The position numbers were made by a program, and so were the translations under genes. Source: Thermoflexales bacterium (GTDB taxonomy: Bacteria; Chloroflexota; Anaerolineae; Fen-1058). From it: DNA of 64,000 bases. This document shows positions 3,461 to 63,752 of the stretch, piece by piece. The notes below the pieces were generated by a model. That model saw only the letters and a list, made by a program, of their open reading frames with translations, searched no databases and had not been told where the DNA came from. Location: the NCBI GenBank assembly GCA_034434835.1, contig DAOTXX010000019.1, positions 21,361 through 85,360 of the forward strand, written 5' to 3'. Numbering within the stretch: position 1 is the first letter of the stretch; each line of letters starts with the position of its first letter.

Positions 3461-3499
3461 GGCGCGACGGAACACGCAGTACGGAATACGGAGCAGGAC

Positions 3500-4320: not shown

Positions 4321-6084
4321 ATGACAACAGATAATGATCTCGTCGTTCGCATTGGCGGCGACAGCGCAGCGGGCGGCATCGTCACCACAGGTGAGGTGTT
4401 CGCCCGTATTGCTGCATACGTTGGACTGGAAATTTACACCACCCGCACCATCCCCGCGGAAATCAAGGGCGGTCACGTCATGTTCCAGGTGCGCGCCGCC
4501 GATCATCCGGTCCACAGTCAGGGCGATGAGTTGGATTTGCTCGTGGCATATGACCAGGAATCATACGATCGCTATTTCAAGCTGCTCAAGCCAGGCGGTA
4601 TCTTTGTATACAACAGCAATGACCTGACCCTGCCCCTCAGCAGCCAAGCCAGAATATACGGCATTCCACTCAACGAACTCGCACGCCAGATTGATTTCAC
4701 GCGCGGGCGCAACATCATTCTGATCGGCGCGCTGGTCAAGCTGTTCGACTTGCCGTACGACCGCGCGGTCCAAGTCGTCCACAAGCAGCTGGGGCGCAAA
4801 AAAGAAATGCTGGAGCAGAACCTCACCGCGCTCCAGGCCGGCTACCGCTGGGTCGAGGAAAACATTGGACTGGAATCGCCCTTTCATCTGCGCGGCAGGC
4901 CGCGCGAAAATGATGAGCGGTTGATCATCTCGGGCAATCAGGCCCTCGCCATCGGCGCGATCGCCGCCGGCTGTCGCTTTTATGCGGGCTACCCGATCAC
5001 GCCCGCGTCGGACATTATGGAGTTCCTGGCCGCCGAGTTCCCCAAGATCGGCGGGACGATGATCCAGGCCGAAGACGAGATCGCTGCGATCGGTATGGCG
5101 CTGGGCGCGTCGTTCACAGGCGCGCGTGCGATGACCGCGACGAGCGGCCCGGGCCTCGCGCTCATGGTCGAGATGATCGGCCACGCCTCGATGACCGAGA
5201 CGCCCGTCGTCATCGTGGACGTTCAACGCGCCGGGCCTTCGACTGGGATGCCGACCAAAGTCAGCCAGGGCGATTTGCGGCTGGCCGTCTTTGGCGGCAA
5301 CGACGACGCGCCGCGTTTTGTCGTCGCGCCGGTCAGTGTGGAGGACTGCTTTTATCAGATCGTCAACGCGTTCAATCTGGCCGAGAAATACCAGACGCCG
5401 GTGCTGTTCCTTTCCGACCAGGACATGAGCGTGCGCGTGCAGACGATCCCGCCGTTCGACCTTTCAAAGGTGAAGCACGAGCCGCGCCTGCTGTGGAACC
5501 CGCACGGCGATGGACCAAGTCAATACGAAAGGTACCAGGACACCCCCAGCGGCGTCAGCCCGATGAGCGTACCAGGCATGTCCGGCGGTCAATACACCGC
5601 CGAGGGCCTGGAGCATTATGCGTCTGGCGCGCCGGGCTATGACCCCGAATTGCACCGCACTAACATGGACAAGCGTTATCGCAAGCTCGAAAGCGCCCTG
5701 CCCGACATCGAAGCCTGGGGCATGTATGAGCAGTTCGGCGACGACGAGGCCGCGCTGGGCATCATCGGCTGGGGCAGCACGATCGGCCCGGTGCGCGAGG
5801 CGGTGGCGCGCGCCAAGGAAAACGGGATCCCGGTCGCCGTGTTCTACCCCAAGGCGCTGTTCCCCTTGCCGGATGCCAGGCTCAAGGCGTTCCTGGAAAA
5901 GCGGCAGGCTGTCATCGTGCCGGAGATGAATTACACCGGCCAGTTCGCGGGGATGCTCCGCGCTCGCGCGCAAAGCTATGGCATCGAGCGGCCGATCGTC
6001 AAGCTGAACCAGTATGGCGGCGTGCCGCTCTCGACGCGCGAGGTTTACGAGCAGATCGTGGCGGTTCACGAGACGCTCGAGTGA
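4321..6084 (+). CDS. korA: 2-oxoacid:ferredoxin oxidoreductase, alpha (fused alpha/gamma-type) subunit
   Basis: Start is trimmed to the ATG at 4321, which is preceded by a GGAGGAGAG RBS. The protein shows pyruvate/2-oxoglutarate:Fd oxidoreductase domain I/III similarity, and the TPP-binding beta subunit follows. Confidence 0.82.
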   Translation: MTTDNDLVVRIGGDSAAGGIVTTGEVFARIAAYVGLEIYTTRTIPAEIKGGHVMFQVRAADHPVHSQGDELDLLVAYDQESYDRYFKLLKPGGIFVYNSNDLTLPLSSQARIYGIPLNELARQIDFTRGRNIILIGALVKLFDLPYDRAVQVVHKQLGRKKEMLEQNLTALQAGYRWVEENIGLESPFHLRGRPRENDERLIISGNQALAIGAIAAGCRFYAGYPITPASDIMEFLAAEFPKIGGTMIQAEDEIAAIGMALGASFTGARAMTATSGPGLALMVEMIGHASMTETPVVIVDVQRAGPSTGMPTKVSQGDLRLAVFGGNDDAPRFVVAPVSVEDCFYQIVNAFNLAEKYQTPVLFLSDQDMSVRVQTIPPFDLSKVKHEPRLLWNPHGDGPSQYERYQDTPSGVSPMSVPGMSGGQYTAEGLEHYASGAPGYDPELHRTNMDKRYRKLESALPDIEAWGMYEQFGDDEAALGIIGWGSTIGPVREAVARAKENGIPVAVFYPKALFPLPDARLKAFLEKRQAVIVPEMNYTGQFAGMLRARAQSYGIERPIVKLNQYGGVPLSTREVYEQIVAVHETLE

Positions 6085-6231
6085 TTCGTGTTGCGTGTTC
6101 CGTGTTATACCCAACGCGGGCACAAATTGCGCTTTTCTCCTGTCAACGAATATTGAACGAATAAACGAATAGGCCCGCTGGCCGCGCTCAGTATACGTTT
6201 CCAACGCAAACGGACGGAATACGCAATACGA

Positions 6232-6380
6232 AAGTAACTACTCAGCCGTCATTGCGAGGAGGCCCGCGAAGCGGGCCGACGAAGCCATCTCACAGCAATC
6301 GGAGTACAGAGATTGCTTCGTCTGCCTTCGGCAGGCTCGCAATGACAGCCTGTGCGGTAGACTGGGCTGAGTAGTTACAT
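6232..6380. repeat. Nested-palindrome element related to 1077-1333 (TIR-like GTCATTGCGAGG / CCTCGCAATGAC; internal GGCCCGCGAAGCGGGCC hairpin; GAGATTGCTTCG module)
   Basis: The outer pair is GTAACTACTCAGCCGTCATTGCGAGG ... CCTCGCAATGACAGCC..GGCTGAGTAGTTAC. Perfect internal hairpins are present. The whole element lies in the korA-korB intergenic region. Confidence 0.4.
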
Positions 6381-9167: not shown

Positions 9168-9203
9168 GAAACCCGAAGGGTCTCGCAGACCCTTCGGGTT
9201 TTT
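9168..9203. terminator. Bidirectional Rho-independent terminator (AAACCCGAAGGGTC-tcgca-GACCCTTCGGGTTTTTT)
   Basis: A perfect 14-bp stem flanked by A/T runs lies between convergent degV (+) and the DUF350 gene (-). Confidence 0.7.
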
Positions 9204-9207
9204 TGGA

Positions 9208-15794: not shown

Positions 15795-16640
15795 TCACAG
15801 GTCACGCCGCGCAAACTGCCGCAGCGCCAGCATCAGCATCACGGCAACGTAAAACACCGCATAGGCGACCATCGCCGGGCTGGGCACGGAGGTCGAAGCA
15901 AAAGGCGACGCGCCCAACACGGCAGAGATCGAGCTTTGCATCTCATAAGCCGCACGCTTCCACAACGCTTCGCTGGGCATGAACAGGCTCGACACGATGC
16001 CGATGTTGACGGCGGTCTCGTTGTGCAACAGCGAGCCGATCTGCTCGATCCAGCCGCCGACGAACGCCAGCCCATACAGCCCAAAGGCCAACACGCCGTT
16101 AGCGAGCGTGGAAAGCGACGTGCCGCCCAAAATGCTCACGCTAAGGAGCACCGTCCCTTCCAGCATCATCAGCCCCAGCCCGCGCCACAAGCCAGGCGTC
16201 GAATAGCGCGTGAGCGCATACATCACCCCGGCCACGCCGCCGCCCATCAGCGCCACATACAGCGCGAGCATCCCCGCAAAGCCCAGCCACTTGCCCAGGA
16301 CGATCTCGCGTCGGCGTAGCGGCTTGGTAACCACCGCCTGCACCGTCCCCGATCCGATCTCGCCCGCGAGCGTGTCCACGCTGGTCAGCACCGTCATCAT
16401 CACGACGAGGAAATTGACCACGTACAACCCGGCCATCAGCAAGAAATTATACATCTCGCGCATCATCGCCTCCTGACGTGAGCTGGTCGTGCGCGAAATC
16501 TCTCGCTGAATGAAATACACGCCCACGCCATACAGCACCAGGAACGCCAGGCCCAAGATCAGCGCCGCCCACAGAATCTTGCGGCGGGCCGCCTCACGAA
16601 ATGTCAGTCGAGCGATGATCCAGGTGGCCATATCCCTCAC
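15795..16640 (-). CDS. ABC-2 type transporter permease
   Basis: It is a 281-aa protein with six TM segments, located immediately downstream of an ABC ATPase. Confidence 0.7.
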   Translation of the reverse strand: MRDMATWIIARLTFREAARRKILWAALILGLAFLVLYGVGVYFIQREISRTTSSRQEAMMREMYNFLLMAGLYVVNFLVVMMTVLTSVDTLAGEIGSGTVQAVVTKPLRRREIVLGKWLGFAGMLALYVALMGGGVAGVMYALTRYSTPGLWRGLGLMMLEGTVLLSVSILGGTSLSTLANGVLAFGLYGLAFVGGWIEQIGSLLHNETAVNIGIVSSLFMPSEALWKRAAYEMQSSISAVLGASPFASTSVPSPAMVAYAVFYVAVMLMLALRQFARRDL

Positions 16641-16680
16641 CCCTCATCCTTCATCCTTCCGCCTTCATCCTTCATCCTTC
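16625..16680. repeat. Heptamer-periodic repeat (CATCCTT/GAAGGAT family) between ABC ATPase and permease genes
   Basis: The sequence reads CCTCATCCTTCATCCTTCCGCCTTCATCCTTCATCCTTCAC. The same word family forms hairpins at 33205-33292 and 50210-50256. Confidence 0.5.
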
Positions 16681-17596
16681 ACAGCCCCCCATCTGTTCCT
16701 ACGACTTGCAAGAACAAATCCTCCAGCGAGAGCTTTTGTGGCGTCATGGCGTAAAGATCGCCACCCTGCTCCACAATCCACCGCGCCATTTGCGGCAACG
16801 CCTCTTCGGCGTCCACCGCCAGGTGAACGCGCTCGCCATCCACGCGCACGTCCTGTCCCCACCGCGACAGTCCCTCGATCATGTTCGGTGAGAGACGGCC
16901 CACACGCAGCTCGACGGTCGTTTGACCTTCGACCAGCGTCTGCAGCGCGGCTTGCCGGATCACCTGCCCCTGCTTGATGAACGCCACGCGGTCGCAGGTG
17001 ATTTCGACCTCGGACAGCAAATGCGAGTTGAGAAAGACTGTAGCCCCCTGGCTCTTGAGATCGCGGATAATGTCGCGCACCAAGCGACGCCCCACCGGGT
17101 CCAGCCCGGAGGTCGGCTCGTCGAGGAAAATCAGTTGGGGCTGGTTGAGCAGCGCCTGCGCCAGCCCAATGCGCTGCAGCATCCCTTTGGAAAACGATTT
17201 GAGTTTCTTGTCCGAGTGCGGCGCGAGGCCGACCAAGTCGAGCAGCTTGGGGACGCTCTCTCGCAACCGCGCCTCGGTCATGCCATACAGTTGACCGTGC
17301 AGGCGCAAGAACTCGGCAGCGTTGAGCCAATCGTGAAAGCGAAAGTGCTCCGGCAAAAAGCCGACGCGGGCGCGCGTCTTGACATCGCCCAGCGGCGCGC
17401 CGAGCAGCCTGCCCTGGCCGCTCGTCGGCGCAACCAAACTCAATAGCATCTTGACCGAGGTCGTCTTGCCCGCGCCGTTCGGGCCGAGAAAGCCAAATAC
17501 CTCACCCTGTCGTACTTGCAGCGTGAGGTCCTCAACGGCAACTTTGTGGCCGAACACTTTGCGGAGATGATGTGTTTCGATGGCTAGCTGTTCCAT
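16679..17596 (-). CDS. ABC transporter ATP-binding protein (ABC-2 / DrrA-like)
   Basis: Walker A is GPNGAGKTT. A degenerate C-loop is FSKGMLQRIGLAQAL, and Walker B is LIFLDEPTSGLD. Confidence 0.88.
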   Translation of the reverse strand: MEQLAIETHHLRKVFGHKVAVEDLTLQVRQGEVFGFLGPNGAGKTTSVKMLLSLVAPTSGQGRLLGAPLGDVKTRARVGFLPEHFRFHDWLNAAEFLRLHGQLYGMTEARLRESVPKLLDLVGLAPHSDKKLKSFSKGMLQRIGLAQALLNQPQLIFLDEPTSGLDPVGRRLVRDIIRDLKSQGATVFLNSHLLSEVEITCDRVAFIKQGQVIRQAALQTLVEGQTTVELRVGRLSPNMIEGLSRWGQDVRVDGERVHLAVDAEEALPQMARWIVEQGGDLYAMTPQKLSLEDLFLQVVGTDGGL

Positions 17597-21428: not shown

Positions 21429-21502
21429 TGGGCGCGAGAGGGCTCGAACCTCCGACCTCATCAATGTGAGTGATGCGCTCTGACCGGCTGAGCTACGCGC
21501 CC
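21429..21502 (-). tRNA. tRNA-Val (anticodon CAC)
   Basis: The reverse complement folds as a 74-nt cloverleaf. The acceptor stem is GGGCGCG/CGCGCCC, the D stem GCTC/GAGC, the anticodon stem CATCA/TGATG with loop CTCACAT, and the T arm GGAGG-TTCGAGC-CCTCT. Discriminator is A, and no CCA is encoded. Confidence 0.85.
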
Positions 21503-25896: not shown

Positions 25897-26029
25897 TCAA
25901 CCTCCCGCAGGCTGGGAGATGCGTCTTTGGAGCTATCCCTCGAAATCCCCCCTGCCTTTTGAACTATTGACCCAACCTTCTCGCAGGCTCTAGAATAGAT
26001 ACATCGAAGCATGATTGGGAGGTTGACCT

Positions 26030-27073
26030 ATGATGACGCGACGACAATTCATTGAGCGGATGATGGCGCTGGGCTTGGGCACGAGCCTTACGGCACTGAC
26101 AGCGTGCGCGCCTCGCCCCCCCGCGTCCACACCCACGTCCGCTCCCCCGGTTCCACCTACACTTGTTCCCCAACCCATCCCGCCGACTGTGACAACTGGC
26201 AAAGTAGCAGCAACCCCAAGCGTCCCGACAACGACCGCCGCGGCGACCCCGGCTGTCCCGGCTTCGCAGGCGTATCTGGCCGTCGCGCGGGGCGATGATC
26301 CTGCGACGATCACGCAGCGCGCGGTCAAGGTGCTGGGCGGGATGGAACGATTTGTCCAGAAAGGGCAAAACGTCCTCATCAAGCCCAACATCTGCGTGGC
26401 CTATCACGGCCCCGAATACGCCGCCACGACGAACCCGCAAGTCGTCGCCGCGCTCGTGAAAATGTGTCGCGAGGCAGGCGCGTCGTCTGTGACGGTGATG
26501 GACCATCCCTTTGGCGGCACCGCCGAGAAGGCTTACCAGATCAGCCAGATCGGCGACGCAGTCAAGGCGGCAGGCGGGCAGATGGTCGTGATGGGGTCAG
26601 CCAAGTTCAGAGACACGCCCATCCCAGAAGGCAAAGACATTAAAAAGTGGCTGATCTACCAGGACGCGCTCAAGTTCGACGTGCTCATTGACGTGCCGAT
26701 TGCCAAGCATCACGGGTTGGCTCGACTGACGTTAGCAGGCAAGAACCTGATGGGCCTGACAGAAAATCGCGGCGGCTTGCACCCGAATCTGGGCGAGCGA
26801 CTGGTGGACCTGTACACGCTGTTTCGGCCCAGGCTGATCGTCGTGGATGCTTACCGCATGTTGATGAACAATGGCCCGACGGGCGGCAATCTGAACGACG
26901 TCAAGCTCGCCAAGACCGTCATCGCCAGCCACGACATCGTCGCCGCCGATGCTTATGCCACGACGCTGTTCGGCTTGCCGGCCGACGCCATCTCGTACGT
27001 CAAGGCGGGCGCCGCGCGCGGGATCGGCACCCTGGACCTCAAGAGCATCAAGATTGAGGAAATCACTGCATGA
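26030..27073 (+). CDS. DUF362 domain protein with Tat signal / lipoprotein Cys
   Basis: The N-terminus MMTRRQFIERMMALGLGTSLTALTAC carries a twin-arginine signal, and a Pro/Thr linker follows. The DUF362 core reads NVLIKPNICVAYHGPEYAATTNPQVV. The RBS is GGGAGG. Confidence 0.7.
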   Translation: MMTRRQFIERMMALGLGTSLTALTACAPRPPASTPTSAPPVPPTLVPQPIPPTVTTGKVAATPSVPTTTAAATPAVPASQAYLAVARGDDPATITQRAVKVLGGMERFVQKGQNVLIKPNICVAYHGPEYAATTNPQVVAALVKMCREAGASSVTVMDHPFGGTAEKAYQISQIGDAVKAAGGQMVVMGSAKFRDTPIPEGKDIKKWLIYQDALKFDVLIDVPIAKHHGLARLTLAGKNLMGLTENRGGLHPNLGERLVDLYTLFRPRLIVVDAYRMLMNNGPTGGNLNDVKLAKTVIASHDIVAADAYATTLFGLPADAISYVKAGAARGIGTLDLKSIKIEEITA

Positions 27074-27135
27074 TGCGTCAAACGTCATGCGTCATGCGTC
27101 AAACGTCATCTGTTGACGCCTGACGTTTGACGAAC
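27073..27135. repeat. Heptamer-periodic hairpin repeat (GCGTCAA/ACGTCAT words + inverted TGACGTTTGACG)
   Basis: The sequence reads ATGCGTCAAACGTCATGCGTCATGCGTCAAACGTCATCTGTTGACGCCTGACGTTTGACG. The same word family recurs at 31201-31262, 36463-36495 and 53812-53872. Confidence 0.55.
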
Positions 27136-27140
27136 CTGGC

Positions 27141-27647
27141 ATGAACACTTGCGATACGACCTGGGACATTTCGCTCGCTGAACTCAACGACCACCTCGGT
27201 GCTGCGGGCGTCGAGCCTGTGGTGCGCGAAGGTGTATCCTCCGCACGCGACCTGGACGCGCCGACGCGCCAAACACTGGTGACGGCATTGCGCCAGTCCG
27301 TGCGCCGCGCACGCGGGGACGCACCGCTGGTCGGGCAGTGGGCGGCAGCCGCGCAATCGCTGGTCATGAATCACGATTTCAGCCCGGCCGCGCGTCAACG
27401 CGAAGAGGCGTTCTGGTCCGCCCTCACGCGCATCGTCAACGGTTGTTATGCCCAGGTGTTGCTGGGCGACCTATCCGAGTTCCCATTCTTTATCGAGCTG
27501 CTCAGGCATCAGCCCGCGGGTCACCTGACCGAAATAGCAACTGGGGTGCTGCGCCACCATGTTGATCCAGCACGCAAGCTGGATCCCCCTCAACTCATCC
27601 GCCTCGCCGAAGAATGGTTTCAGACCCATCAGGTCGCCAAAGCCTGA
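27141..27647 (+). CDS. Hypothetical protein
   Basis: This is a 168-aa ORF with codon bias matching its neighbours. No family was recognised. Confidence 0.4.
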   Translation: MNTCDTTWDISLAELNDHLGAAGVEPVVREGVSSARDLDAPTRQTLVTALRQSVRRARGDAPLVGQWAAAAQSLVMNHDFSPAARQREEAFWSALTRIVNGCYAQVLLGDLSEFPFFIELLRHQPAGHLTEIATGVLRHHVDPARKLDPPQLIRLAEEWFQTHQVAKA

Positions 27648-30772: not shown

Positions 30773-31201
30773 ATGAACTCCGAATATTCTGGCCCATGCC
30801 CCGGTGATAAAGTGTTGCTCGTCAGTGTCAAAGGAGACAAGCCGTTTGAATTGCTGCGCATGATCTTTGAGCAAAAGAAAGGCTGTCTGACCATCGTATC
30901 CACAGTTGCAGAGGCCATCAGCAAGCTGAGCGAACCATTTGACCTGGTGTGGATACAATTGCCGCTGCCCGACTTGAACGGGCGGCTCTTGATTGACCTC
31001 TTGCTTGCCACGCCTGATCTGGCCGATCGCGTCGGCGTGATGGATCCCCTCAAGGTCACGCTGCGACTGCTCGAGATGCCCATCCTGGATATCTTTGAAG
31101 GGCTGCCGATGCGAGACCGAAGGGGGATTTGGATCCGTATCCGTACCAAGGACGAGCGCGAGTGGGTACGGCATCATCTCGGCCAGTGTGTGCAAAGGTA
31201 A
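30773..31201 (+). CDS. Stand-alone receiver-like (pseudo-receiver) domain protein
   Basis: The CheY-like fold pattern is present. The expected phospho-acceptor position reads DLVWIQLPLPDLNG, with Q in place of Asp. Confidence 0.5.
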   Translation: MNSEYSGPCPGDKVLLVSVKGDKPFELLRMIFEQKKGCLTIVSTVAEAISKLSEPFDLVWIQLPLPDLNGRLLIDLLLATPDLADRVGVMDPLKVTLRLLEMPILDIFEGLPMRDRRGIWIRIRTKDEREWVRHHLGQCVQR

Positions 31202-31262
31202 GCTCAAACGTCACCACTTTCGTTGACGTCTGACGCATGACGTTTGACGCTTGACATTCTAC
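31201..31262. repeat. Heptamer-periodic hairpin repeat (CAAACGTCA / TGACGTTTGACG)
   Basis: The sequence reads AGCTCAAACGTCACCACTTTCGTTGACGTCTGACGCATGACGTTTGACGCTTGACA. Confidence 0.5.
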
Positions 31263-31435: not shown

Positions 31436-33226
31436 ATGAAACGCTTACTTTCCGGCAACGAAGCGATCGCCCTCGGCGCGTTCGAGGGTGGAGTGCGGTA
31501 CGCGGCGGCTTACCCCGGCACACCGTCCACCGAGATCCTGGAAAACCTCGCCACGTACAAAGGCGTCGTGGCCGAGTGGGCCTCGAACGAAAAAGTCGCG
31601 CTCGATAGCGCCATCGGCGCGGCGTTCGCAGGCGCGCGCGCGCTGACGGCGATGAAGCACGTCGGCGTGAACGTCGCCGCCGATTCGCTGATGAGCGCAA
31701 GCTACACGGGGGTGCGCGCAGGACTGGTGCTGGTGAGCGCGGATGACCCCGGCACGTTCTCTTCGCAGAACGAACAGGACAATCGCCAGTACGCCCGGTT
31801 TGCCAAGATTCCCTGCCTGGAGCCTTCGGACAGCCAGGAGGCCAAAGATTTCACGGCGCTGGCCTTTGAGATTTCGGAGCAGTTCGATACACCCGTCCTG
31901 CTGCGCTCGACGACGCGCCTGAGTCACGGCAAGTCCGCCGTCGAGGTGGACGTGCCTAAAGAGCGCGGCGAGCAGCCGCCGCTGCCCAAGTTCGAGCGCG
32001 ATCCACAAAAGTATGTCATCATCCCGGCGCACGCCAAGCTGCGCCACCCGGTCGTCGAAGAGCGCATGCGCCGACTCAGGGACTATGCCGAGACGACGCC
32101 GCTCAATCGCGTCGAGTGGGGCGATCGCAAGATCGGCGTCATCACGGGCAGCGTGGCGTATCAATACGCGCGCGAGGTTTTTGAAGGCTACAGCTTCTTG
32201 AAGCTCGGCCTGAGTTACCCCCTCCCCGAAAAAACCATCCGCGATTTTGCCGCGCAAGTCGAGACGCTCGTCGTCGTCGAAGAGCTTGACCCGTTTTGGG
32301 AAGAGCAGATCCGCGCGATGGGCCTCCGGTGCTACGGCAAAGATGTTTTCCCCATGGCGGGCGAGTACACCTTGACCGTCGTGCGCGAGAGCGCGCTCAA
32401 GGCAAGCCTGCCCGTCAAGCCGGTTGAAAAACCCAGGCCAGTCGAACTCACCTTCAAGGTTCCGCCGCGCCCGCCTGCGCTGTGCCCCGGCTGCTCGCAC
32501 CGCGCGCCGTTCTATTCACTTTCGCGCCACAAGGTGCTCGTCTCCGGCGACATTGGCTGCTACAGCATCGGCATGCTCCCGCCGTTCAACGCGATGGACA
32601 CCCTCATCTCGATGGGCGCGTCTATCGGCCTGGCGCATGGTGCCAATCAAGCCGGACTGGAAGACAAGATGGTGGCTGTCATCGGCGATAGCACCTTTTT
32701 CCACGCGGGCATCTCGGCGCTCGCCAGCGCGATCTATAACAACAGCCCGACGCTCACCATCATCCTCGACAACGGCACGACGGGCATGACGGGCCAGCAA
32801 GGCAACCCGGCGTCCGGCCAGACCCTGCAAGGCACGCCCGGTCGCCGTGTGCCGATCGAGCCGGTCGTGCGCGCGATGGGGATCGGACGCGTGTGGACCG
32901 TCAACGCGCTCGATGAGCCAGCCGTGGACAAGGCGATCAAAGAAGCGCTCGCCATCCAAGACCAGCCGGCCGTTGTCATTGTCGAGGGAACATGCGTGAT
33001 GCTCGACGAGTTCAAGCGGCGGTCGGTCGTTTCGGTGGACCTGGAGACGTGCAACGGCTGCGCGCTGTGCTTTCGCGTCGGCTGCCCGGCGATCCTCAAA
33101 TCATCCGATCTGGACGCCAAGACCAGTCGCCCCAAGGCGCAGATTGACCCGCTGTTGTGTGTGGGCTGTGACGTGTGTCTCCAAGTCTGCCCGCGCGATG
33201 CGATCTTTCGAAAGGATGAAGGATGA
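31436..33226 (+). CDS. iorA: Indolepyruvate:ferredoxin oxidoreductase alpha subunit
   Basis: The N-terminus MKRLLSGNEAIALGAFEGGVRYAAAYPGTPSTEILE is the IorA signature, and the GDIGCY TPP region is present. The C-terminus has two 4Fe-4S motifs (CNGCALCFRVGCPA; CVGCDVCLQVCP). Confidence 0.88.
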   Translation: MKRLLSGNEAIALGAFEGGVRYAAAYPGTPSTEILENLATYKGVVAEWASNEKVALDSAIGAAFAGARALTAMKHVGVNVAADSLMSASYTGVRAGLVLVSADDPGTFSSQNEQDNRQYARFAKIPCLEPSDSQEAKDFTALAFEISEQFDTPVLLRSTTRLSHGKSAVEVDVPKERGEQPPLPKFERDPQKYVIIPAHAKLRHPVVEERMRRLRDYAETTPLNRVEWGDRKIGVITGSVAYQYAREVFEGYSFLKLGLSYPLPEKTIRDFAAQVETLVVVEELDPFWEEQIRAMGLRCYGKDVFPMAGEYTLTVVRESALKASLPVKPVEKPRPVELTFKVPPRPPALCPGCSHRAPFYSLSRHKVLVSGDIGCYSIGMLPPFNAMDTLISMGASIGLAHGANQAGLEDKMVAVIGDSTFFHAGISALASAIYNNSPTLTIILDNGTTGMTGQQGNPASGQTLQGTPGRRVPIEPVVRAMGIGRVWTVNALDEPAVDKAIKEALAIQDQPAVVIVEGTCVMLDEFKRRSVVSVDLETCNGCALCFRVGCPAILKSSDLDAKTSRPKAQIDPLLCVGCDVCLQVCPRDAIFRKDEG

Positions 33227-33292
33227 AGGCAGAAGGATGAAGGCGAAAACGCTTCCGCCTTCATCCTTTCGCCTTCTGCCTTCACAAGAGGT
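33205..33292. repeat. Heptamer-periodic hairpin (GAAGGAT x3 ... ATCCTTC) spanning the iorA stop and the iorA-iorB spacer
   Basis: The sequence reads GAAGGATGAAGGATGAAGGCAGAAGGATGAAGGCGAAAACGCTTCCGCCTTCATCCTTTCGCCTTCTGCCTTCAC. The last iorA codons (RKDEG) are encoded by the repeat. Confidence 0.55.
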
Positions 33293-33880: not shown

Positions 33881-33902
33881 AGCGGGTATTGGATATTGGG
33901 TA

Positions 33903-34469
33903 TTGGCAGGGGGCGATGTGAAATTGCCGTTTTTGAACCGGGAGCCGACGACGCTGCGCGAGCGACTGCTGGCCGCGGTCGAGCAGGGGCTGAAAGCCGA
34001 CCGGGTCTCATTTGTCCCGCTGGGCGAAGGGTTCTACGTCCACGTGATGCCACCCCGGTACGACTTTTTTGAGGAGCGTGAGCGCTTTGACCGCGAGGCG
34101 GAGGAAGCGCGCCGGGCGATGTTGGGCGATGCGCCGCTGGGCCGTTACGCGCTCATCAACTTTCGTGACGTGCGAGAAGGCAAGTTCCCGTTCTCTTTCG
34201 ATTACCAGGCGTGGGCCGGCAAGCTCGCGCTCAAGCTCACAGGCGAGATCGGGTTGATCTTTTTGGTGCGCGAACAAGAGGTGCGCCAGGTGATCGCGCG
34301 CGAGTGCGATCGCGTGGGATTGCAGTGCGAGCCGCATGGCCGGTGGGACATGCGCGTCGCAGGCACGTCACACGTTATCTACGTTGGCGATCTGGTGTAC
34401 GAGGCGATTGGCCGCGCCAGGAACTTGAGCGAGTTGGTGCGGGAGCAGTTGGCTTTACTGCTCGACTAG
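33903..34469 (+). CDS. Hypothetical protein
   Basis: This 188-aa ORF has a TTG start. No family was recognised. Confidence 0.4.
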   Translation: MAGGDVKLPFLNREPTTLRERLLAAVEQGLKADRVSFVPLGEGFYVHVMPPRYDFFEERERFDREAEEARRAMLGDAPLGRYALINFRDVREGKFPFSFDYQAWAGKLALKLTGEIGLIFLVREQEVRQVIARECDRVGLQCEPHGRWDMRVAGTSHVIYVGDLVYEAIGRARNLSELVREQLALLLD

Positions 34470-36424: not shown

Positions 36425-36620
36425 AGAATGCCAGGCGTATTGCGTATTGCGTATTGCGTAGGACGTGAAACGAGAGACGTGAAACGTCATGCGTCAAATG
36501 ACCTGCTATACTGATCGCCTTTCAGATTTGTGAATTTCGGCGGCTCGTAGTAGCGACTTGAGTCGCTTGCCAACCTGGACGACTAGAGTCGTCACTACGG
36601 GCTAATTCACAAAATCCAAG
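36425..36620. repeat. Composite intergenic repeat region: GCGTATT x3 + GACGTGAAACG x2 + GTCATGCGTCAAATGAC heptamer words, followed by nested inverted repeats (GATTTGTGAATT...AATTCACAAAATC; GCGACttgaGTCGC; GACGACTagaGTCGTC)
   Basis: The composition is read directly from the sequence. The region lies upstream (5') of the minus-strand GH5-like gene. Confidence 0.5.
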
Positions 36621-36647
36621 TGCGCTCCGTATATCAGCCATTGGCCA

Positions 36648-37133
36648 TCAGCCACGCGAAGCGGCCATCCGCGACAAGCGATAGGCGAGGAGCAAAAGGA
36701 TCAGCCCTGCGCCGTCGAACGCGATGAACCGCAAGCCGGTGGCGCGCAGCGCGTCGTGGCCGGCGGGCAATCCGATCAGCATCAGCGATTCGCCGACAAG
36801 CCCGATGACTTGCATCGCCAGGACGCACGCCAGGGCGACGCGATGCCGGACCGGATGCAGGATCGCCGGAACGAACGGCACGGCCCACATCAAAAACAGG
36901 AGGCCGAATCCGCGCACGGCGACTTGGCCCGGCACGCCGCTCAACTCGAACGCGGCGGCGTAATCCGCGGGACGAACGACGTAGGGGATAGCCGCGCTCA
37001 GGTTGGAGACCAGGACCATCAACAGCATGACGCGGGCGAGGCGAACGCGGCTGGCGTCTCGTAAATGACTTGCTTGCATGGTTTCGAGCGGATAGACGAA
37101 TGACCCAAGTCGCCATCTTTCGTCATTGGTCAT
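36648..37133 (-). CDS. Hypothetical 4-TM membrane protein
   Basis: The hydrophobic frame is plausible, whereas the alternative frame is Arg-rich nonsense. An ATGA overlap with mobB suggests coupling. Confidence 0.45.
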   Translation of the reverse strand: MTNDERWRLGSFVYPLETMQASHLRDASRVRLARVMLLMVLVSNLSAAIPYVVRPADYAAAFELSGVPGQVAVRGFGLLFLMWAVPFVPAILHPVRHRVALACVLAMQVIGLVGESLMLIGLPAGHDALRATGLRFIAFDGAGLILLLLAYRLSRMAASRG

Positions 37134-37624
37134 TCGTCCTTCGTCAAAAAACGACGCTCAATCAAATCCACCAGCCCCCTGGCGTCGTCCAATCCAAACT
37201 GCGGCACGTCCAAGTCGAAAGGCTGGTCGGTGGCGAGCGCGACGAGTTCCTGGCGCGTGCACAGCAATTCGCGCCCCTTGGCCGCGCGGCTGACTTCGAT
37301 CTTGAGCGCCGGCCCGCGCTTGTAACCTTCGGTGAGGATAATGTCTACGTCGTGGATCGTGGAGACGATCTCGGGCAGGGTCAGTTCGCGCTCGATGTGT
37401 TGAATGTGCGCGATGCGCGTGGGCGAGGCGATGACGACGTGATCCGAGCCAGCCTGCGCGTGCCGCCAGGTGTCCTTGCCGGGCTGGTCCAGCTCAAAGC
37501 TGTGCGCGTCATGTTTGATGGTCGCCACGCGATAGCCGCGCGCTTTGAGCTCCCGGATCAGTTTTTCCAGCAGCGTCGTCTTGCCTACGTCGGATTTACC
37601 GACGATAGAGAGGACAGGGATCAT
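37130..37624 (-). CDS. mobB: Molybdopterin-guanine dinucleotide biosynthesis adapter protein MobB
   Basis: Start is trimmed to MIPVLSIVGKSDVGKTTLLEKLIREL, which carries the Walker A motif and is preceded by GGAAGG. Confidence 0.8.
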   Translation of the reverse strand: MIPVLSIVGKSDVGKTTLLEKLIRELKARGYRVATIKHDAHSFELDQPGKDTWRHAQAGSDHVVIASPTRIAHIQHIERELTLPEIVSTIHDVDIILTEGYKRGPALKIEVSRAAKGRELLCTRQELVALATDQPFDLDVPQFGLDDARGLVDLIERRFLTKDE

Positions 37625-38784: not shown

Positions 38785-38968
38785 CGTTATCCCTCTCGTA
38801 GGTTTGTAACCTGCGGGAGGGTTCATTCTTAGTCCAAAAGGACTAGACCCCCTCTCCCTTTCCCCTCTGACGGGTCATAGACACCTGTCACGCGCCTCAC
38901 CTATAATAAAGTCACTTGTGTCCACCTTTGTGGAGGCGCAGCCCTCGCAAGGGTGAATCCGATGACTT

Positions 38969-40158: not shown

Positions 40159-40228
40159 ACTTGGCCAAGCCTCCCGCAGGTTGCTGCGGCGAGCCATTTC
40201 ACATTCAGGCCGTAAAATCGGCTAAACC
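40159..40228. repeat. Perfect 14-bp inverted repeat GCCTCCCGCAGGTT ...(42 nt)... AACCTGCGGGAGGC upstream of the large protease gene
   Basis: The 13-mer core also occurs at 25898-25912 and 38808-38820. Confidence 0.5.
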
Positions 40229-40315
40229 TGCGGGAGGCTGAGCAGTTGCCAATGCTCTTGGTCGCTCATTCTATCTGCGACGGGGTATCGTTCGACAACG
40301 AAAGGAGGACTGGAG

Positions 40316-45489: not shown

Positions 45490-45530
45490 GTGTTTTACGC
45501 ATCACGCATCACGTGAAGCGTGATGCGTAA
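45490..45530. repeat. Heptamer-periodic hairpin (ACGCATC x2 / CGTGATGCGTAA) after fhs
   Basis: The sequence reads TTTACGCATCACGCATCACGtgaagCGTGATGCGTAAAG, giving a perfect 12-bp stem. Confidence 0.55.
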
Positions 45531-45548
45531 AGAGCTTGGAGGGAACGA

Positions 45549-50197: not shown

Positions 50198-50209
50198 AGG
50201 CGAAAGGTT

Positions 50210-50256
50210 GAAGGATGAAGGATGAAGGCGGGAAGGTTTTTCGTCCTTCATCCTTC
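50210..50256. repeat. Heptamer-periodic hairpin (GAAGGAT x2...ATCCTTC) acting as probable terminator after acsB
   Basis: The sequence reads GAAGGATGAAGGATGAAGGCGGGAAGGTTTTTCGTCCTTCATCCTTC. Confidence 0.55.
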
Positions 50257-50364
50257 CTCAGTATGACCCCGACGTCGCGCAGACCGATCGGGGTTTCTGT
50301 CTGTCATCGCTTGCCAGTTTAGGGTATAATAATGTGACGTGGTAGGTGATATGTAAACAGTTAG

Positions 50365-51489: not shown

Positions 51490-52260
51490 ATGGTCTCCAG
51501 TGTAACTAGTTCTCGCCTAGAACAAGAACGAATGAGTGCTATGCTGGGTGTTCTTTTGCCGTGCGTATTATTCGTGTTGTGTTTGTTTCTGTCTGCATGT
51601 TTTGTTCCACCCGAATCAGGTTTAGCGCCTACTGTGGCTTTGCAAACTTCTGCATTGGATGCTACGCAAACTGCGGGCAGGGTATTGGCTTCTACTAAAG
51701 AAGCATCATTGAAAATGGCACAGCAAACGGCGGAAAGTGCTCGCTTAACGCCCCAACCTACTGGCTGGGCCATAAAGTTAACACCAAGTGTGGTTATAGT
51801 GTCTACACCCGCCCCGGCCATTTTTGTTCCTGAACGGCAAAGCACACCAGCAGGGGCAGGCGCTATCTTGAACGTCAAGTTAATACCACCGTTTTACACA
51901 CATGATTTTATTGTTGAGAACGTTTGGTATAGAGACTTTGATGGAGGAATCCAACGCGTATACGTTTACGGTGGATTCATACCCGATCCAAAGGGAGCGC
52001 CTACACCGCAAGGAGTAGTAGTTGTTCAGGTATTAAAAATGGATGCTCAAGGAAATCCGCAAATGATCTATTATGGGCGTTTTCCTACTCAGATGCAGGC
52101 AGGGCCAGTGCGCGTCACGGACGCAGTTGGCGAACGGTTGGTTCTTGAATCAACCAATGGGACTAGATTTTATTTTGATGTTCCATTACGCCAGTTTGTG
52201 CCTTCGCTCACGTGGGTTAGTCCCGTTGCAACACCTAGCCCGCAACCTGCCCGACCCTAA
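51490..52260 (+). CDS. Low-GC insertion gene 2: putative lipoprotein of unknown function
   Basis: The N-terminus is MLGVLLPCVLFVLCLFLSAC, with LSAC as the lipobox. The protein is 256 aa, and its AT-rich composition matches gene 1. Confidence 0.55.
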   Translation: MVSSVTSSRLEQERMSAMLGVLLPCVLFVLCLFLSACFVPPESGLAPTVALQTSALDATQTAGRVLASTKEASLKMAQQTAESARLTPQPTGWAIKLTPSVVIVSTPAPAIFVPERQSTPAGAGAILNVKLIPPFYTHDFIVENVWYRDFDGGIQRVYVYGGFIPDPKGAPTPQGVVVVQVLKMDAQGNPQMIYYGRFPTQMQAGPVRVTDAVGERLVLESTNGTRFYFDVPLRQFVPSLTWVSPVATPSPQPARP

Positions 52261-52380: not shown

Positions 52381-53331
52381 ATGCCTGTCACCATCGAAAT
52401 CCCCAAAGAAAAATGGACTGGCAGGGTCCGTGAAATCACATTGGGCGCGACCGCTGCCGAAGGCGGGTCACGCAAAAAGACGGTTACCGTGGGCGGTGAA
52501 GCGACATTGCCCTTTTTGCATTTTGAAGGCGCGATCCCGCACCCGCCGGCGATCGCCCTCGAAATCAAAAGCCGCAAGCCCGATGACTGGTCGCCATTGC
52601 TGCTGCACGCCTGGGGCGAGGCAGCCAATGATCCGGGCGAGTGGGCCGGGGCCGCGGAAGCCGCTGGCGCGGACATTATCCTTCTGACGCTTTCCCTCCA
52701 GGACACGCCCGACGAGGCCAAGGCCGCGCTCAAGAAGGTGTTGGGCGTCACCGGGTTGCCGGTGGCGGTCTTTGGCCCCGGTCAGGCCGATAAGGACAAT
52801 GAACTGCTGGTGCCGGTCGCCGAAGCAGGCGCCGGCGAAAAGCTGCTGCTGGGCGTGTGCGAGGACAAGAACTATCGCACCATCGTCGCCGCTGCGCTCG
52901 CGCACGGCCACCTGGTAGACAGCCGCACGCCGATGGACGTGAACCTGTCCAAGCAGCTCATCATCCTCATCAAAGACATGGGCATGCCGCTGGAACGCAT
53001 CATCATGGATCCGAGCACGGGCGCGTTGGGCTATGGCATTGAATACGGCTATTCGGTGATGGAGCGCCTGAGGCTGGCCGCGCTGGGCGGAGACGGCATG
53101 ACGCAGCAGCCGATGCTCGTCACGGTGGGCGAGGAAGCCTGGAAGGTCAAAGAGGCCAAGGTTGGCGAAGGCGTCCCGGCGGCGTGGGGCGATTGGAAAG
53201 AACGCTCTATCAACTGGGAAGTGCTCACTGCGTCCGCCCTGATCGAATCCGGCGCGGACATTCTCGTCATGCGCCACCCCGAATCGGTCAAGCGCGTCAA
53301 GGCTATGATCGCCGAGCTGATGACAAAATAA
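52381..53331 (+). CDS. acsD: Corrinoid iron-sulfur protein small subunit (CODH/ACS delta; AcsD)
   Basis: The protein aligns with Moorella AcsD along its full length (LGATAAEGGSRKKTVTVGGEATLPFLHFEG; IDPSTGALGYGIEYGYSVMERLRLAAL; ILVMRHPESV). The RBS is AAAGGAGG. Confidence 0.9.
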   Translation: MPVTIEIPKEKWTGRVREITLGATAAEGGSRKKTVTVGGEATLPFLHFEGAIPHPPAIALEIKSRKPDDWSPLLLHAWGEAANDPGEWAGAAEAAGADIILLTLSLQDTPDEAKAALKKVLGVTGLPVAVFGPGQADKDNELLVPVAEAGAGEKLLLGVCEDKNYRTIVAAALAHGHLVDSRTPMDVNLSKQLIILIKDMGMPLERIIMDPSTGALGYGIEYGYSVMERLRLAALGGDGMTQQPMLVTVGEEAWKVKEAKVGEGVPAAWGDWKERSINWEVLTASALIESGADILVMRHPESVKRVKAMIAELMTK

Positions 53332-53574: not shown

Positions 53575-53811
53575 ATGGTTTCCGCGGAAGAGTACGCACG
53601 GATGAAAGAAGTGGTTGAGACGATCAGCCACTATGCTCAAATCTATCACAGCGGGACAGTCGAGTTGGCAGACTTTGACGGCGAGCACGTCAAAGTCAAG
53701 ATGGGTGGCGCGTGCGAAGGCTGCCCGCTCCTGCCGTGGACGCTCAAAATGACGGTCGAGCGCACCATCCACGATCTGTTCCCCAATGTGAAATCGGTCG
53801 AGGCTGTCTGA
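53575..53811 (+). CDS. NifU-like (Nfu) Fe-S cluster scaffold domain protein
   Basis: The protein is 78 aa. It reads VELADFDGEHVKVKMGGACEGCPLLPWTLKMTVERTIHDLFPNVKSVEAV, with the NifU C-terminal CxxC motif. Confidence 0.75.
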   Translation: MVSAEEYARMKEVVETISHYAQIYHSGTVELADFDGEHVKVKMGGACEGCPLLPWTLKMTVERTIHDLFPNVKSVEAV

Positions 53812-53872
53812 GTCAAACGTCGAGCGTCAAACGTCATGACGTCTTGCGTTTGACGTTTCACGTCTGATACCA
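53812..53872. repeat. Heptamer-periodic hairpin (GTCAAACGTC x2 / GACGTTTGACGTTTCACGTC) after nfu
   Basis: The sequence reads TGAGTCAAACGTCGAGCGTCAAACGTCATGACGTCTTGCGTTTGACGTTTCACGTCTGA. Confidence 0.55.
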
Positions 53873-62589: not shown

Positions 62590-62655
62590 TTCAGGCTCTT
62601 TGCCACGAATTACACGAATTGCACGAACTTGAATCTTTTCGTGGTCATTCGTGAA
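62590..62655. repeat. Heptamer-periodic repeat (CACGAAT words + inverted TTCGTGGTCATTCGTGAAAC)
   Basis: The sequence reads CCACGAATTACACGAATTGCACGAACTTGAATCTTTTCGTGGTCATTCGTGAAAC. Confidence 0.5.
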
Positions 62656-62789
62656 ACCTGTCCTCGCGCAGGCGGGGATTCGTGGCTGAAAACCGAATAA
62701 GCTGAACAGCTACGATTTCTGATTGTAGATGGCTGGAGCGGCTGTTCAATCAGCCATCAGCCACCTGCAATCCGCCATTGGAGACTGCC

Positions 62790-63704: not shown

Positions 63705-63752
63705 TTTTGGATTTTCGATTGCGGATTACGCAACAGCAACGCCTCTGCTCAG

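Follow-up and report, generated by a model that had tools for sequence, protein, structure and literature searches.

Heptanucleotide repeats in operon spacers of Anaerolineae, with and without inverted copies able to form stem-loops

The DNA considered here is a stretch of 64,000 nucleotides from a Thermoflexales bacterium (Chloroflexota, Anaerolineae; assembly GCA_034434835.1, contig DAOTXX010000019.1, positions 21,361 to 85,360), referred to below as the window, in which many of the spacers between genes carry arrays of tandem seven-nucleotide units, in many cases followed by an inverted copy of the array. These elements are intergenic heptanucleotide microsatellites that resemble the short tandemly repeated repetitive (STRR) sequences of cyanobacteria and occur lineage-wide in the Anaerolineae, with 8- and 9-nt units as minor variants. 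The window has a GC content of 60.5% and encodes exonuclease VII, two 2-oxoacid:ferredoxin oxidoreductases, an ABC transporter and a Wood-Ljungdahl cluster with fhs, carbon monoxide dehydrogenase (CODH), acsB, CdhD-type subunits, RACo, a pterin-binding methyltransferase and folD; the Pfam search covered about 20 of its open reading frames (ORFs). Its AcsB is identical to that of the metagenome-assembled genome (MAG) GCA_964419895.1. An initial annotation, made from the letters of the sequence alone, had described the elements as a genome-specific family of heptamer-periodic hairpins at the 3' ends of genes, acting as REP-like terminators or mRNA stabilisers. The elements of the window are listed below, with z-scores that compare RNA folding with dinucleotide shuffles and, where given, the interval folded; the repeat-finding programs named, Tandem Repeats Finder (TRF) and a strict period detector, are described after the list.

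3461-3499 (+): direct array of ACGGAAC/ACGCAGT/ACGGAAT/ACGGAGC, the whole 39-nt spacer from the xseA stop to the next ATG (z -1.3).
6085-6230 (+): long-range stem after the POR alpha stop codon (z -3.2, 6083-6232 folded); 5' arm CGTGTTN x3 (6085-6107), 3' arm ACGGAAT ACGCAAT ACG (6209-6230), with G-U pairs in the + strand pairing; the arms enclose about 100 nt that include the octamer pair AACGAATA x2 (6156-6171).
16632-16681 (-): 7 units of GAAGGAT type in direct array on the gene-sense (-) strand; the first unit includes the TGA stop of the ABC ATPase gene and the array reaches the permease start; no inverted partner (z -0.1).
27073-27135 (+): hairpin from the DUF362 stop (27073) towards the ATG at 27141, with ACGTCAT/GCGTCAT/GCGTCAA x5, a short loop and inverted TGACGCC/TGACGTT/TGACG (-33.2 kcal/mol, z -4.6, 27067-27141); it reads ATGCGTC AAACGTC ATGCGTC ATGCGTC AAACGTC ATCTGT TGACGCC TGACGTT TGACG.
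31201-31262 (+): weaker hairpin of ACGTCA/TGACGT units, after an ORF ending at 31201 and upstream of iorA (z -1.8).
33209-33284 (+): hairpin of GAAGGAT/GAAGGCA/GAAGGCG x5 followed by an inverted CGCCTTC/ATCCTTT array (-43.0 kcal/mol, z -5.8, 33205-33292); overlaps the last codons and stop of iorA, with 14 nt left between its end and the iorB start.
33884-33907 (+): direct array TATTGGN x3 that fills the 22-nt spacer after the iorB stop (TRF and strict detector).
36433-36495 (-): GCGTATT x4 (36433-36462), then ACGTGAA/ACGAGAG/ACGTCAT units (36463-36495), upstream of or at the 5' end of a - strand ORF; no stable fold (z +0.35).
36633-36654 (-): ATCAGCC x3 (sense strand GGCTGAT), overlapping the stop of a 161-aa ORF (TRF); the word is that of 62749-62778.
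37119-37146 (-): degenerate TTCGTCA x4 (sense TGACGAA), straddling the ATGA stop/start overlap of two - strand ORFs.
45494-45531 (+): ACGCATC x2 hairpin in the spacer from the fhs stop (45487) to the start of the HMA-domain gene (45549), its 19-nt arms 95% complementary (-25.1 kcal/mol, z -6.1, 45490-45535).
50204-50256 (+): GAAGGAT x3.6 hairpin that begins 7 nt past the acsB stop (-29.5 kcal/mol, z -4.9, 50200-50262).
53812-53867 (+): GTCAAAC/GTCGAGC/GTCAAAC hairpin between the stop of the NifU-like gene (53811) and the CdhD start (53888), with a Shine-Dalgarno (SD) sequence downstream of the stem (-26.7 kcal/mol, z -4.0, 53808-53872).
62604-62652 (+): CACGAATTA x2.7 (period 9, 62604-62627) with a partial inverted copy, TTCGTGGTCATTCGTG (z -2.8, 62590-62655).
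62721-62772 (+): ATCAGCC-type hairpin (GATTGTAGATGGCTGG ... CAGCCATCAGCCACCTGCAATC) just upstream of folD (-30.3 kcal/mol, z -5.0, 62710-62776).
63705-63735 (+): degenerate direct array TTTTGGA/TTTTCGA/TTGCGGA/TTACGCA directly after the folD stop (about -10.6 kcal/mol, folded without shuffle control).

The hairpins that the initial annotation had described are real, that at 27073-27135 among them, but several of its sites proved to be direct arrays: those at 16625-16680, 3461-3499 and 36425-36450 have no inverted partner and z-scores of about 0 to -1.3, and 63705-63735 likewise lacks an inverted partner. The hairpin at 31201-31262 is present but weak, and the site ascribed to CACGAAT at 62590-62655 does fold, although its 62604-62627 portion has a period of 9 rather than 7. 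Four elements were added to those originally noticed, at 33884-33907, 36633-36654, 37119-37146 and 62721-62772. The octamer array at 6156-6171 and the nonamer array at 62604-62627 both adjoin heptamer arrays. The repeat at 37119-37146 would be coding on both sides of the ATGA overlap. A promoter-like site, CTGTCA-18-TATAAT (50301-50330), follows the acsB hairpin and precedes the next ORF (50365); neither this ORF nor the following one (51490-52260) has a Pfam match on record.

Period 7 stands far above chance in the window. The strict detector, which requires at least 12 of 14 matches at lag p and was run for periods 4-15, found 8 period-7 runs where 0.15 were expected and 6 period-14 runs where 0.3 were expected, the latter representing higher-order units; all other periods were at chance level, the baseline being order-1 Markov simulations in which the dinucleotide frequencies of the window are preserved, and a 50-kb control from E. 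coli K-12 contained zero period-7 or period-8 runs. This detector overlooks short or imperfect arrays and flagged 5 of about 14 window sites. TRF reported fifteen period-7 arrays (at 3467, 6087, 16632, 27073, 31223, 33212, 33252, 33887, 36435, 36633, 37119, 45497, 50204, 53812 and 62749), and about 16 window spacers carry 7-mer arrays, two of them together with 8- or 9-mer arrays. At least 8 different words occur within the 64 kb, some at several places (GAAGGAT at 3 loci, ACGTCAA-type words at 4-5 and ATCAGCC at 2), and counts of single heptamers show a clear intergenic enrichment for GAAGGAT, ACGCATC and CACGAAT only. The elements are not an assembly artefact, since the nifU-cdhD spacer has the same sequence in six independent assemblies (NCBI, JGI and Logan; 99.5-100% identity) and the one extra assembly that contains the fhs-HMA spacer has it in identical form.

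The longest inverted repeats of the window are heptamer elements, and eight of the elements fold well beyond dinucleotide shuffles (z -2.8 to -6.1), and their stems measure roughly 17-26 bp. In the window, the folding energy of the sense strand did not differ consistently from that of the antisense strand. Across the Anaerolineae sequences examined, a strong ungapped stem is found in 54 of 113 repeat-bearing spacers, the remainder being direct arrays, and the hairpins vary in word, in arm length (13-61 nt) and in loop. The G-rich arm comes first, relative to transcription, in 31 cases against 10 in the raw count (p = 0.0015).

For comparison we used the 80 acsB loci closest to that of the window among the species representatives of GTDB (74-83% amino-acid identity to window AcsB), every one of which comes from MAGs of Anaerolineae or other Chloroflexota; the 22-kb loci bring the comparative DNA to 1.41 Mb, in which genes were called by a home-made and crude procedure. 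Individual loci are cited by L numbers. Period-7 runs number 846 per Mb in intergenic DNA versus 29 in coding DNA, with lower figures for period 8 (264 versus 10) and period 9 (141 versus 31), and 0-35 versus 1.5-6 for periods 5, 10 and 11. At least one repeat-bearing spacer was present in 49 of 81 sequences, so the family is not specific to one genome, as had been supposed from the window. The vocabulary is large, with 66 canonical heptamers among 96 arrays; typical words in the relatives are ACGTGAA, GAGATTA/GGTTGGA, GCGTACT, AGTAGGG, CAGTGAA and GGGATTA, and GGGATTA/GGGATCA arrays occur in L016, L018, L029 and L076. Words are shared at no more than 1 mismatch by 21% of spacer comparisons within a genome versus 6% between genomes (permutation p = 5e-4), and identical words by 9.8% versus 1.1%, which indicates that the choice of word, but not the phenomenon, is partly genome-specific. 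Single-linkage clustering of the words chained nearly everything together and was uninformative.

Among 105 same-strand repeat-bearing spacers the element starts a median of 7 nt past the upstream stop, a quarter of the elements overlapping the stop codon itself, and ends a median of 17 nt before the downstream start, thereby leaving room for an SD sequence and occupying 58% of the spacer. The placement directly after stop codons noted at the outset is supported, as are the extragenic character of the elements and the occurrence of many strong stem-loops. Overlap with ORFs is restricted to the last few codons; in iorA, as first noted from the window, the last five codons lie in the repeat, the TGA (33224-33226) and the four preceding sense codons being inside the GAAGGAT array. 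When all ORF calls are considered, including those of low confidence, repeats are found in 18% of same-strand spacers of at least 30 nt versus 5-6% of convergent or divergent ones (p = 9e-5). With confident gene calls the counts are 93 of 457 same-strand, 1 of 15 convergent (a small sample) and 3 of 29 divergent spacers (p = 0.07). Several spacers between subunit genes, such as iorA-iorB, carry elements, and most elements stop 10-20 nt before the next start, so that with this stop-to-SD geometry in same-strand spacers they are extragenic within transcription units, as REP elements are.

Orthologous spacers differ in whether they carry an element at all. The acsA-acsB spacer is 10-20 nt long, holding the SD sequence only, in most genomes, and consists of 55-156 nt of 7- or 8-mer arrays or hairpins in about 14; the fhs-HMA and HMA-acsA spacers show the same minimal-or-expanded pattern between genomes. 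In the closely related pair L053 and L068 (acsB 90.7% identical) a 29-nt GGAAGTT/GGAAATT block is present in one and absent from the other, directly at the stop codon and adjoining a two-unit seed found in both, an expansion or contraction of units in situ. A further example is an orthologous hairpin downstream of acsB in six genomes (acsB 84-92% identical), in which the loop, GTCTGACAA, is conserved and each arm has 3-6 units. In this hairpin 94% of cells are paired, five base pairs have been altered on both sides, and the covariation score is 0.200 versus 0.094 when shuffled, a value matched by 1 of 500 shuffles. The position after acsB is itself distinctive, in that a hairpin occurs in 36 of 56 spacers of at least 40 nt there and in 85 of 460 same-strand spacers at other positions (odds ratio 7.9, p = 4e-12). 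Of the 36 hairpins, at least 10 are 7/8-periodic, the others being ordinary GC-rich stems. It therefore seems that a hairpin in this place is under selection and that one made of heptamers can take the role; its conservation by position makes a function at the 3' end or in mRNA stability plausible there.

Intergenic heptamer repeats have reportedly been noted in cyanobacteria for 35 years, and later in Beggiatoa, Xanthomonas and Chloroflexus, but have no accepted function or origin. The Anaerolineae elements show the features of the heptamer class of simple sequence repeats (SSRs), namely an excess of 7-nt head-to-tail units, confinement to non-coding DNA and dispersed words preferred by the genome. 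As in the STRR heptanucleotides of heterocystous cyanobacteria (Mazel et al. 1990, as cited in PMC4692102), units of 7 nt are repeated in tandem, a few to a dozen times, in intergenic positions, with a limited set of genome-preferred words spread over many loci; unlike STRRs, they belong to another phylum, use other words and are at about half of the sites hairpins formed by an array and an inverted array. The STRR1-3 words (CCCCAGT, TTGGTCA and CAACAGT) are absent from the window arrays, and relatives with 1 mismatch occur in other loci only.

Similarity is also evident to the TAACTGA direct repeats of Beggiatoaceae, Cyanobacteria and Bacteroidetes, which occur in filamentous bacteria (MacGregor 2015, PMC4679880): these too are heptamers in 2-6 copies, nearly all intergenic, upstream of starts and sometimes overlapping the end of the preceding ORF. 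In contrast to BOGUAY, where there is essentially one word and 1 inverted set in 170 (PMC4679880), Anaerolineae genomes have many words each and about 48% hairpins. Long arrays of the TAACTGA type, (TCAGTTA)5(TCAGTCA)7 paired with an inverted arm of (TTACTGA)n, lie a short way upstream of start codons in L072 (4487-4643) and L045 (9845-10000); L072 has (TCAGTTA)n, which is TAACTGA in reverse complement, and in addition (TTACTGA)n, so that the word of the Beggiatoaceae and cyanobacterial repeats (PMC4679880) is found here in Chloroflexota MAGs. The intergenic SSRs GGGAATC of Xanthomonas and GGGGA(C/T)T of Nostoc (Rehm et al. 2015, PMC4692102) likewise vary in length between related species at conserved gene pairs, and in Xanthomonas, as in the Anaerolineae, some arrays are convergent inverted pairs able to form stem-loops (PMC4692102). 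The Xanthomonas and Nostoc words, however, contain G-tracts with G-quadruplex potential, whereas the window words GAAGGAT, ACGTCAA, GCGTATT and ACGCATC have no G3 tracts. Within the phylum, a search of the literature for heptamer repeats in Anaerolineae or Chloroflexi yielded only the satellites of Chloroflexus and no description from Anaerolineae; the (GATAGRA)n satellites of Chloroflexus aurantiacus are a species-specific heptamer at about 22 loci (Subirana & Messeguer 2019, PMC6749651), belong to a different class, Chloroflexia, and have been described as a single word, with no hairpin or intercistronic geometry reported.

The repetitive extragenic palindromic (REP) elements and bacterial interspersed mosaic elements (BIMEs) of Enterobacteriaceae are hundreds of copies of a single conserved sequence of about 35 nt, are mobilised by REP-associated tyrosine transposases (RAYTs) and stabilise upstream mRNA. 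The heptamer hairpins share with them the nature of extragenic imperfect palindromes in transcribed spacers, between or after operon genes, but their stems are built of 7-nt units, they are not known to be linked to a transposase and they have no conserved sequence, so that the description as a REP-like family does not hold for a set of at least eight words in 64 kb. A clustered regularly interspaced short palindromic repeat (CRISPR) array, in which copies of a constant repeat of 23-50 nt are separated by unique spacers about as long, was rejected, as it had been in the initial annotation, since the 7-mers are contiguous and have no spacers. A miniature inverted-repeat transposable element (MITE) was also rejected, as no two copies align beyond the word and in-situ expansion of units is seen. 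A search of the window against Rfam at the gathering threshold gave nothing for the heptamer elements, its sole match being a single tRNA gene at 21429-21502 (-).

On balance we lean towards the view that the elements are STRR-like microsatellites grown by slippage in transcribed spacers, the hairpin forms among them probably serving as mRNA stem-loops of the REP or RNase III type. Arrays would gain and lose whole units, the pattern expected of replication slippage; the unit-wise insertions and deletions, seen in the 29-nt block and in the 3-6 units per arm after acsB, together with the period-14 higher-order units, support slippage as the mechanism of growth and agree with the slipped-strand copying first suggested for the window. 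The inverted arm probably arises by fold-back or template switching, and an array with its inverted copy would then form a stem-loop of the size seen in the window, or of up to about 60 nt per arm in relatives. Such elements would persist almost only in transcribed non-coding same-strand spacers, from the upstream stop to just short of the downstream SD. In the mRNA the hairpins would act like REP/BIME sequences or intercistronic stems of the phage T7 type, as a barrier to 3'-to-5' exonucleases. RNase III requires a duplex of about 20 bp, and those hairpins with a duplex of about 20 bp or more are likely substrates; in either way they would determine how stable the segments of an operon are relative to one another, how they are processed and how their translation is coupled. 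Direct-only arrays may be half-elements from this process, recent or degraded, or platforms for single-strand binding. We infer a function at the RNA level from the placement between stop and SD, the stem length sufficient for RNase III, the missing U-tracts and the interchangeability with ordinary hairpins after acsB. The role of mRNA stabiliser originally proposed is thus plausible after acsB, where hairpins are present in 36 of 56 spacers against 18% elsewhere.

Several observations weigh against this interpretation. With unstructured direct arrays at about half of the sites, a hairpin can account for only part of the elements. If an RNA helix had been under selection for a long time, a bias towards wobble pairs on the sense strand might be expected, but in 52 stems there were 53 sense-strand G:T and 54 A:C mismatches, that is, no bias. 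The preference for the G-rich arm first shrinks to 13:7 once word families are collapsed and is therefore only suggestive. The compensatory changes in the hairpin after acsB could reflect correction of quasipalindromes at the DNA level instead of selection, and the enrichment in same-strand spacers is only a trend when confident gene calls are used. With respect to slippage, no copy-number variation was seen at nifU-cdhD among the six near-identical assemblies, giving no sign of hypermutability, and the recurrence of words at several loci per genome means that slippage alone is an insufficient explanation.

A purely neutral origin has to be taken as a serious rival, even if we consider it the less likely reading: a lineage-specific bias of replication or repair would yield slippage and fold-back products of 7-8 nt that are harmless, and so tolerated, in spacers where nothing but an SD sequence is required, and have no function. 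The patchy occurrence among orthologous spacers, many genomes managing with 10-20 nt, is in keeping with this, as are the stems without G-U bias on the sense strand, the unstructured half of the arrays and the AT-richness of the arrays (45% GC versus 60% for the genome), which is expected of unconstrained DNA. In addition, polymerase slippage has been put forward as the cause of an excess of heptamer SSRs reported from many bacteria (Mrazek 2007, as cited in PMC4692102). What neutrality does not readily account for is the conserved position of the hairpin after acsB, a slot that heptamer hairpins fill, the pairing kept through compensatory changes among the six genomes with hairpins there, the sharing of words within genomes beyond chance and the raw bias in orientation relative to transcription.

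It is also conceivable, if improbable, that the arrays are sets of binding sites in which each 7-nt unit is one site for a single-strand-binding protein of the cold-shock (Csp), S1 or CsrA type, sites which the hairpin would mask. Post-transcriptional control through binding of this kind has been proposed for the TAACTGA repeats (PMC4679880), and the placement immediately upstream of the SD or start matches that of the BOGUAY repeats (PMC4679880), the TAACTGA-like arrays of L072 and L045 being in forward orientation upstream of starts. Genome-preferred words at several loci would suit such a protein, and the 7-nt register, awkward for binders of double-stranded DNA, fits the Csp footprint cited in PMC4679880, about one protein per heptamer. 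However, the 66 words among 96 arrays, with at least eight words in the window, are hard to reconcile with one protein; no candidate protein was identified here, and half of the arrays would be locked in duplex.

A more speculative reading, to which we give slightly less credence again, is that the repeats constitute a heptad-register RNA code common to several phyla, for the most part in filamentous lineages (Cyanobacteria, Beggiatoaceae and Anaerolineae), in which each unit would be bound by one OB-fold RNA-binding domain, a ribosome terminating at the stop codon would open the hairpin as a switch that couples or uncouples translation and decay of the neighbouring cistrons, the word families would define genome-specific regulons, and the elements would be spread by a further copying mechanism in addition to slippage.

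It is very unlikely that the elements are Rho-independent terminators at the 3' ends of genes. Like intrinsic terminators they are stem-loops found directly past stop codons; the promoter-like site downstream of the acsB hairpin would suit termination there, and the ordinary hairpins found at the same position in relatives mostly lack clear U-tracts themselves. In contrast to intrinsic terminators, however, they have much longer and AT-richer stems, no U-tract and a next start mostly within 10-20 nt. No T-run follows the heptamer hairpins in the window, where terminator-like matches are at shuffle level, and canonical U-tract terminators with GC-rich stems are present in the same window at 1002-1039, 9170-9207 (bidirectional, in a convergent spacer) and 29269-29249 (-), which shows that terminators of the classical kind, unlike the heptamer hairpins, are in use in this organism. 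The iorA-iorB and nifU-cdhD elements lie between subunit genes, 10-20 nt from the next start, and of the 15 confident convergent spacers only 1 carries repeats; the terminator function first assigned to the elements is therefore not sustained.

Least probable of all is the insertion of mobile palindromic elements (REPs with a RAYT transposase, or MITEs) between genes, for although one word may occupy several loci per genome, spacers that are minimal in relatives are expanded here and the Chloroflexus heptamer satellites have been described as 'probably transposed' (PMC6749651), the copies have nothing in common beyond the 7-nt word, lack terminal inverted repeats outside the array, target-site duplications and a constant length, grew in situ from a two-unit seed in L053/L068, and differ from the sequence-conserved REP-like palindrome that these genomes do contain.

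The Anaerolineae, a class rich in uncultured members, can thus be added to the hosts of heptamer repeats, with repeats in roughly one fifth of operon spacers of at least 30 nt. Here the repeats are often long hairpins and after acsB they occupy the position of a conserved hairpin, and the orthologous operons with and without an element offer a comparative handle on whether such repeats are junk or post-transcriptional elements. Their arrays blur the calling of gene ends and start codons and complicate the assembly of MAGs, and their annotation as terminators or CRISPRs should be avoided.

A second family of palindromes, which is conserved in sequence, CCTCCCGCAGG(TT)...(AA)CCTGCGGGAGG, is intergenic in the window genome and in several Anaerolineae MAGs, and looks closer to a true REP-type element than the heptamer hairpins are. 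Its sites are as follows.

Window: 38791-38821, 40168-40239 and 25901-25913.
L032: 11838-11864.
L041: 5499-5527.
L043: 16366-16395.
L065: 12285-12313.

A long palindrome, ...GTCATTCTGAGGAGCGAAGCGACGAAGAATCTCG...CGAGATTCTT...CTCAGAATGAC, which is not heptamer-periodic, is found in L015 (9838-10032), in the hma-acsA spacer of L008 and in L064 (18157-18455); common to several related loci, it may be a dispersed MITE- or REP-like element. Finally, comparison of the window with a strain variant (L084, JGI 3300010938) revealed a segment of 447 nt (52474-52920 versus 400-846 of L084) that cannot be aligned although its flanks are 99.5% identical. It lies inside a CdhD-like gene (52381-53331) that is called differently in JGI 3300010938, and may be a replaced or recombined segment.

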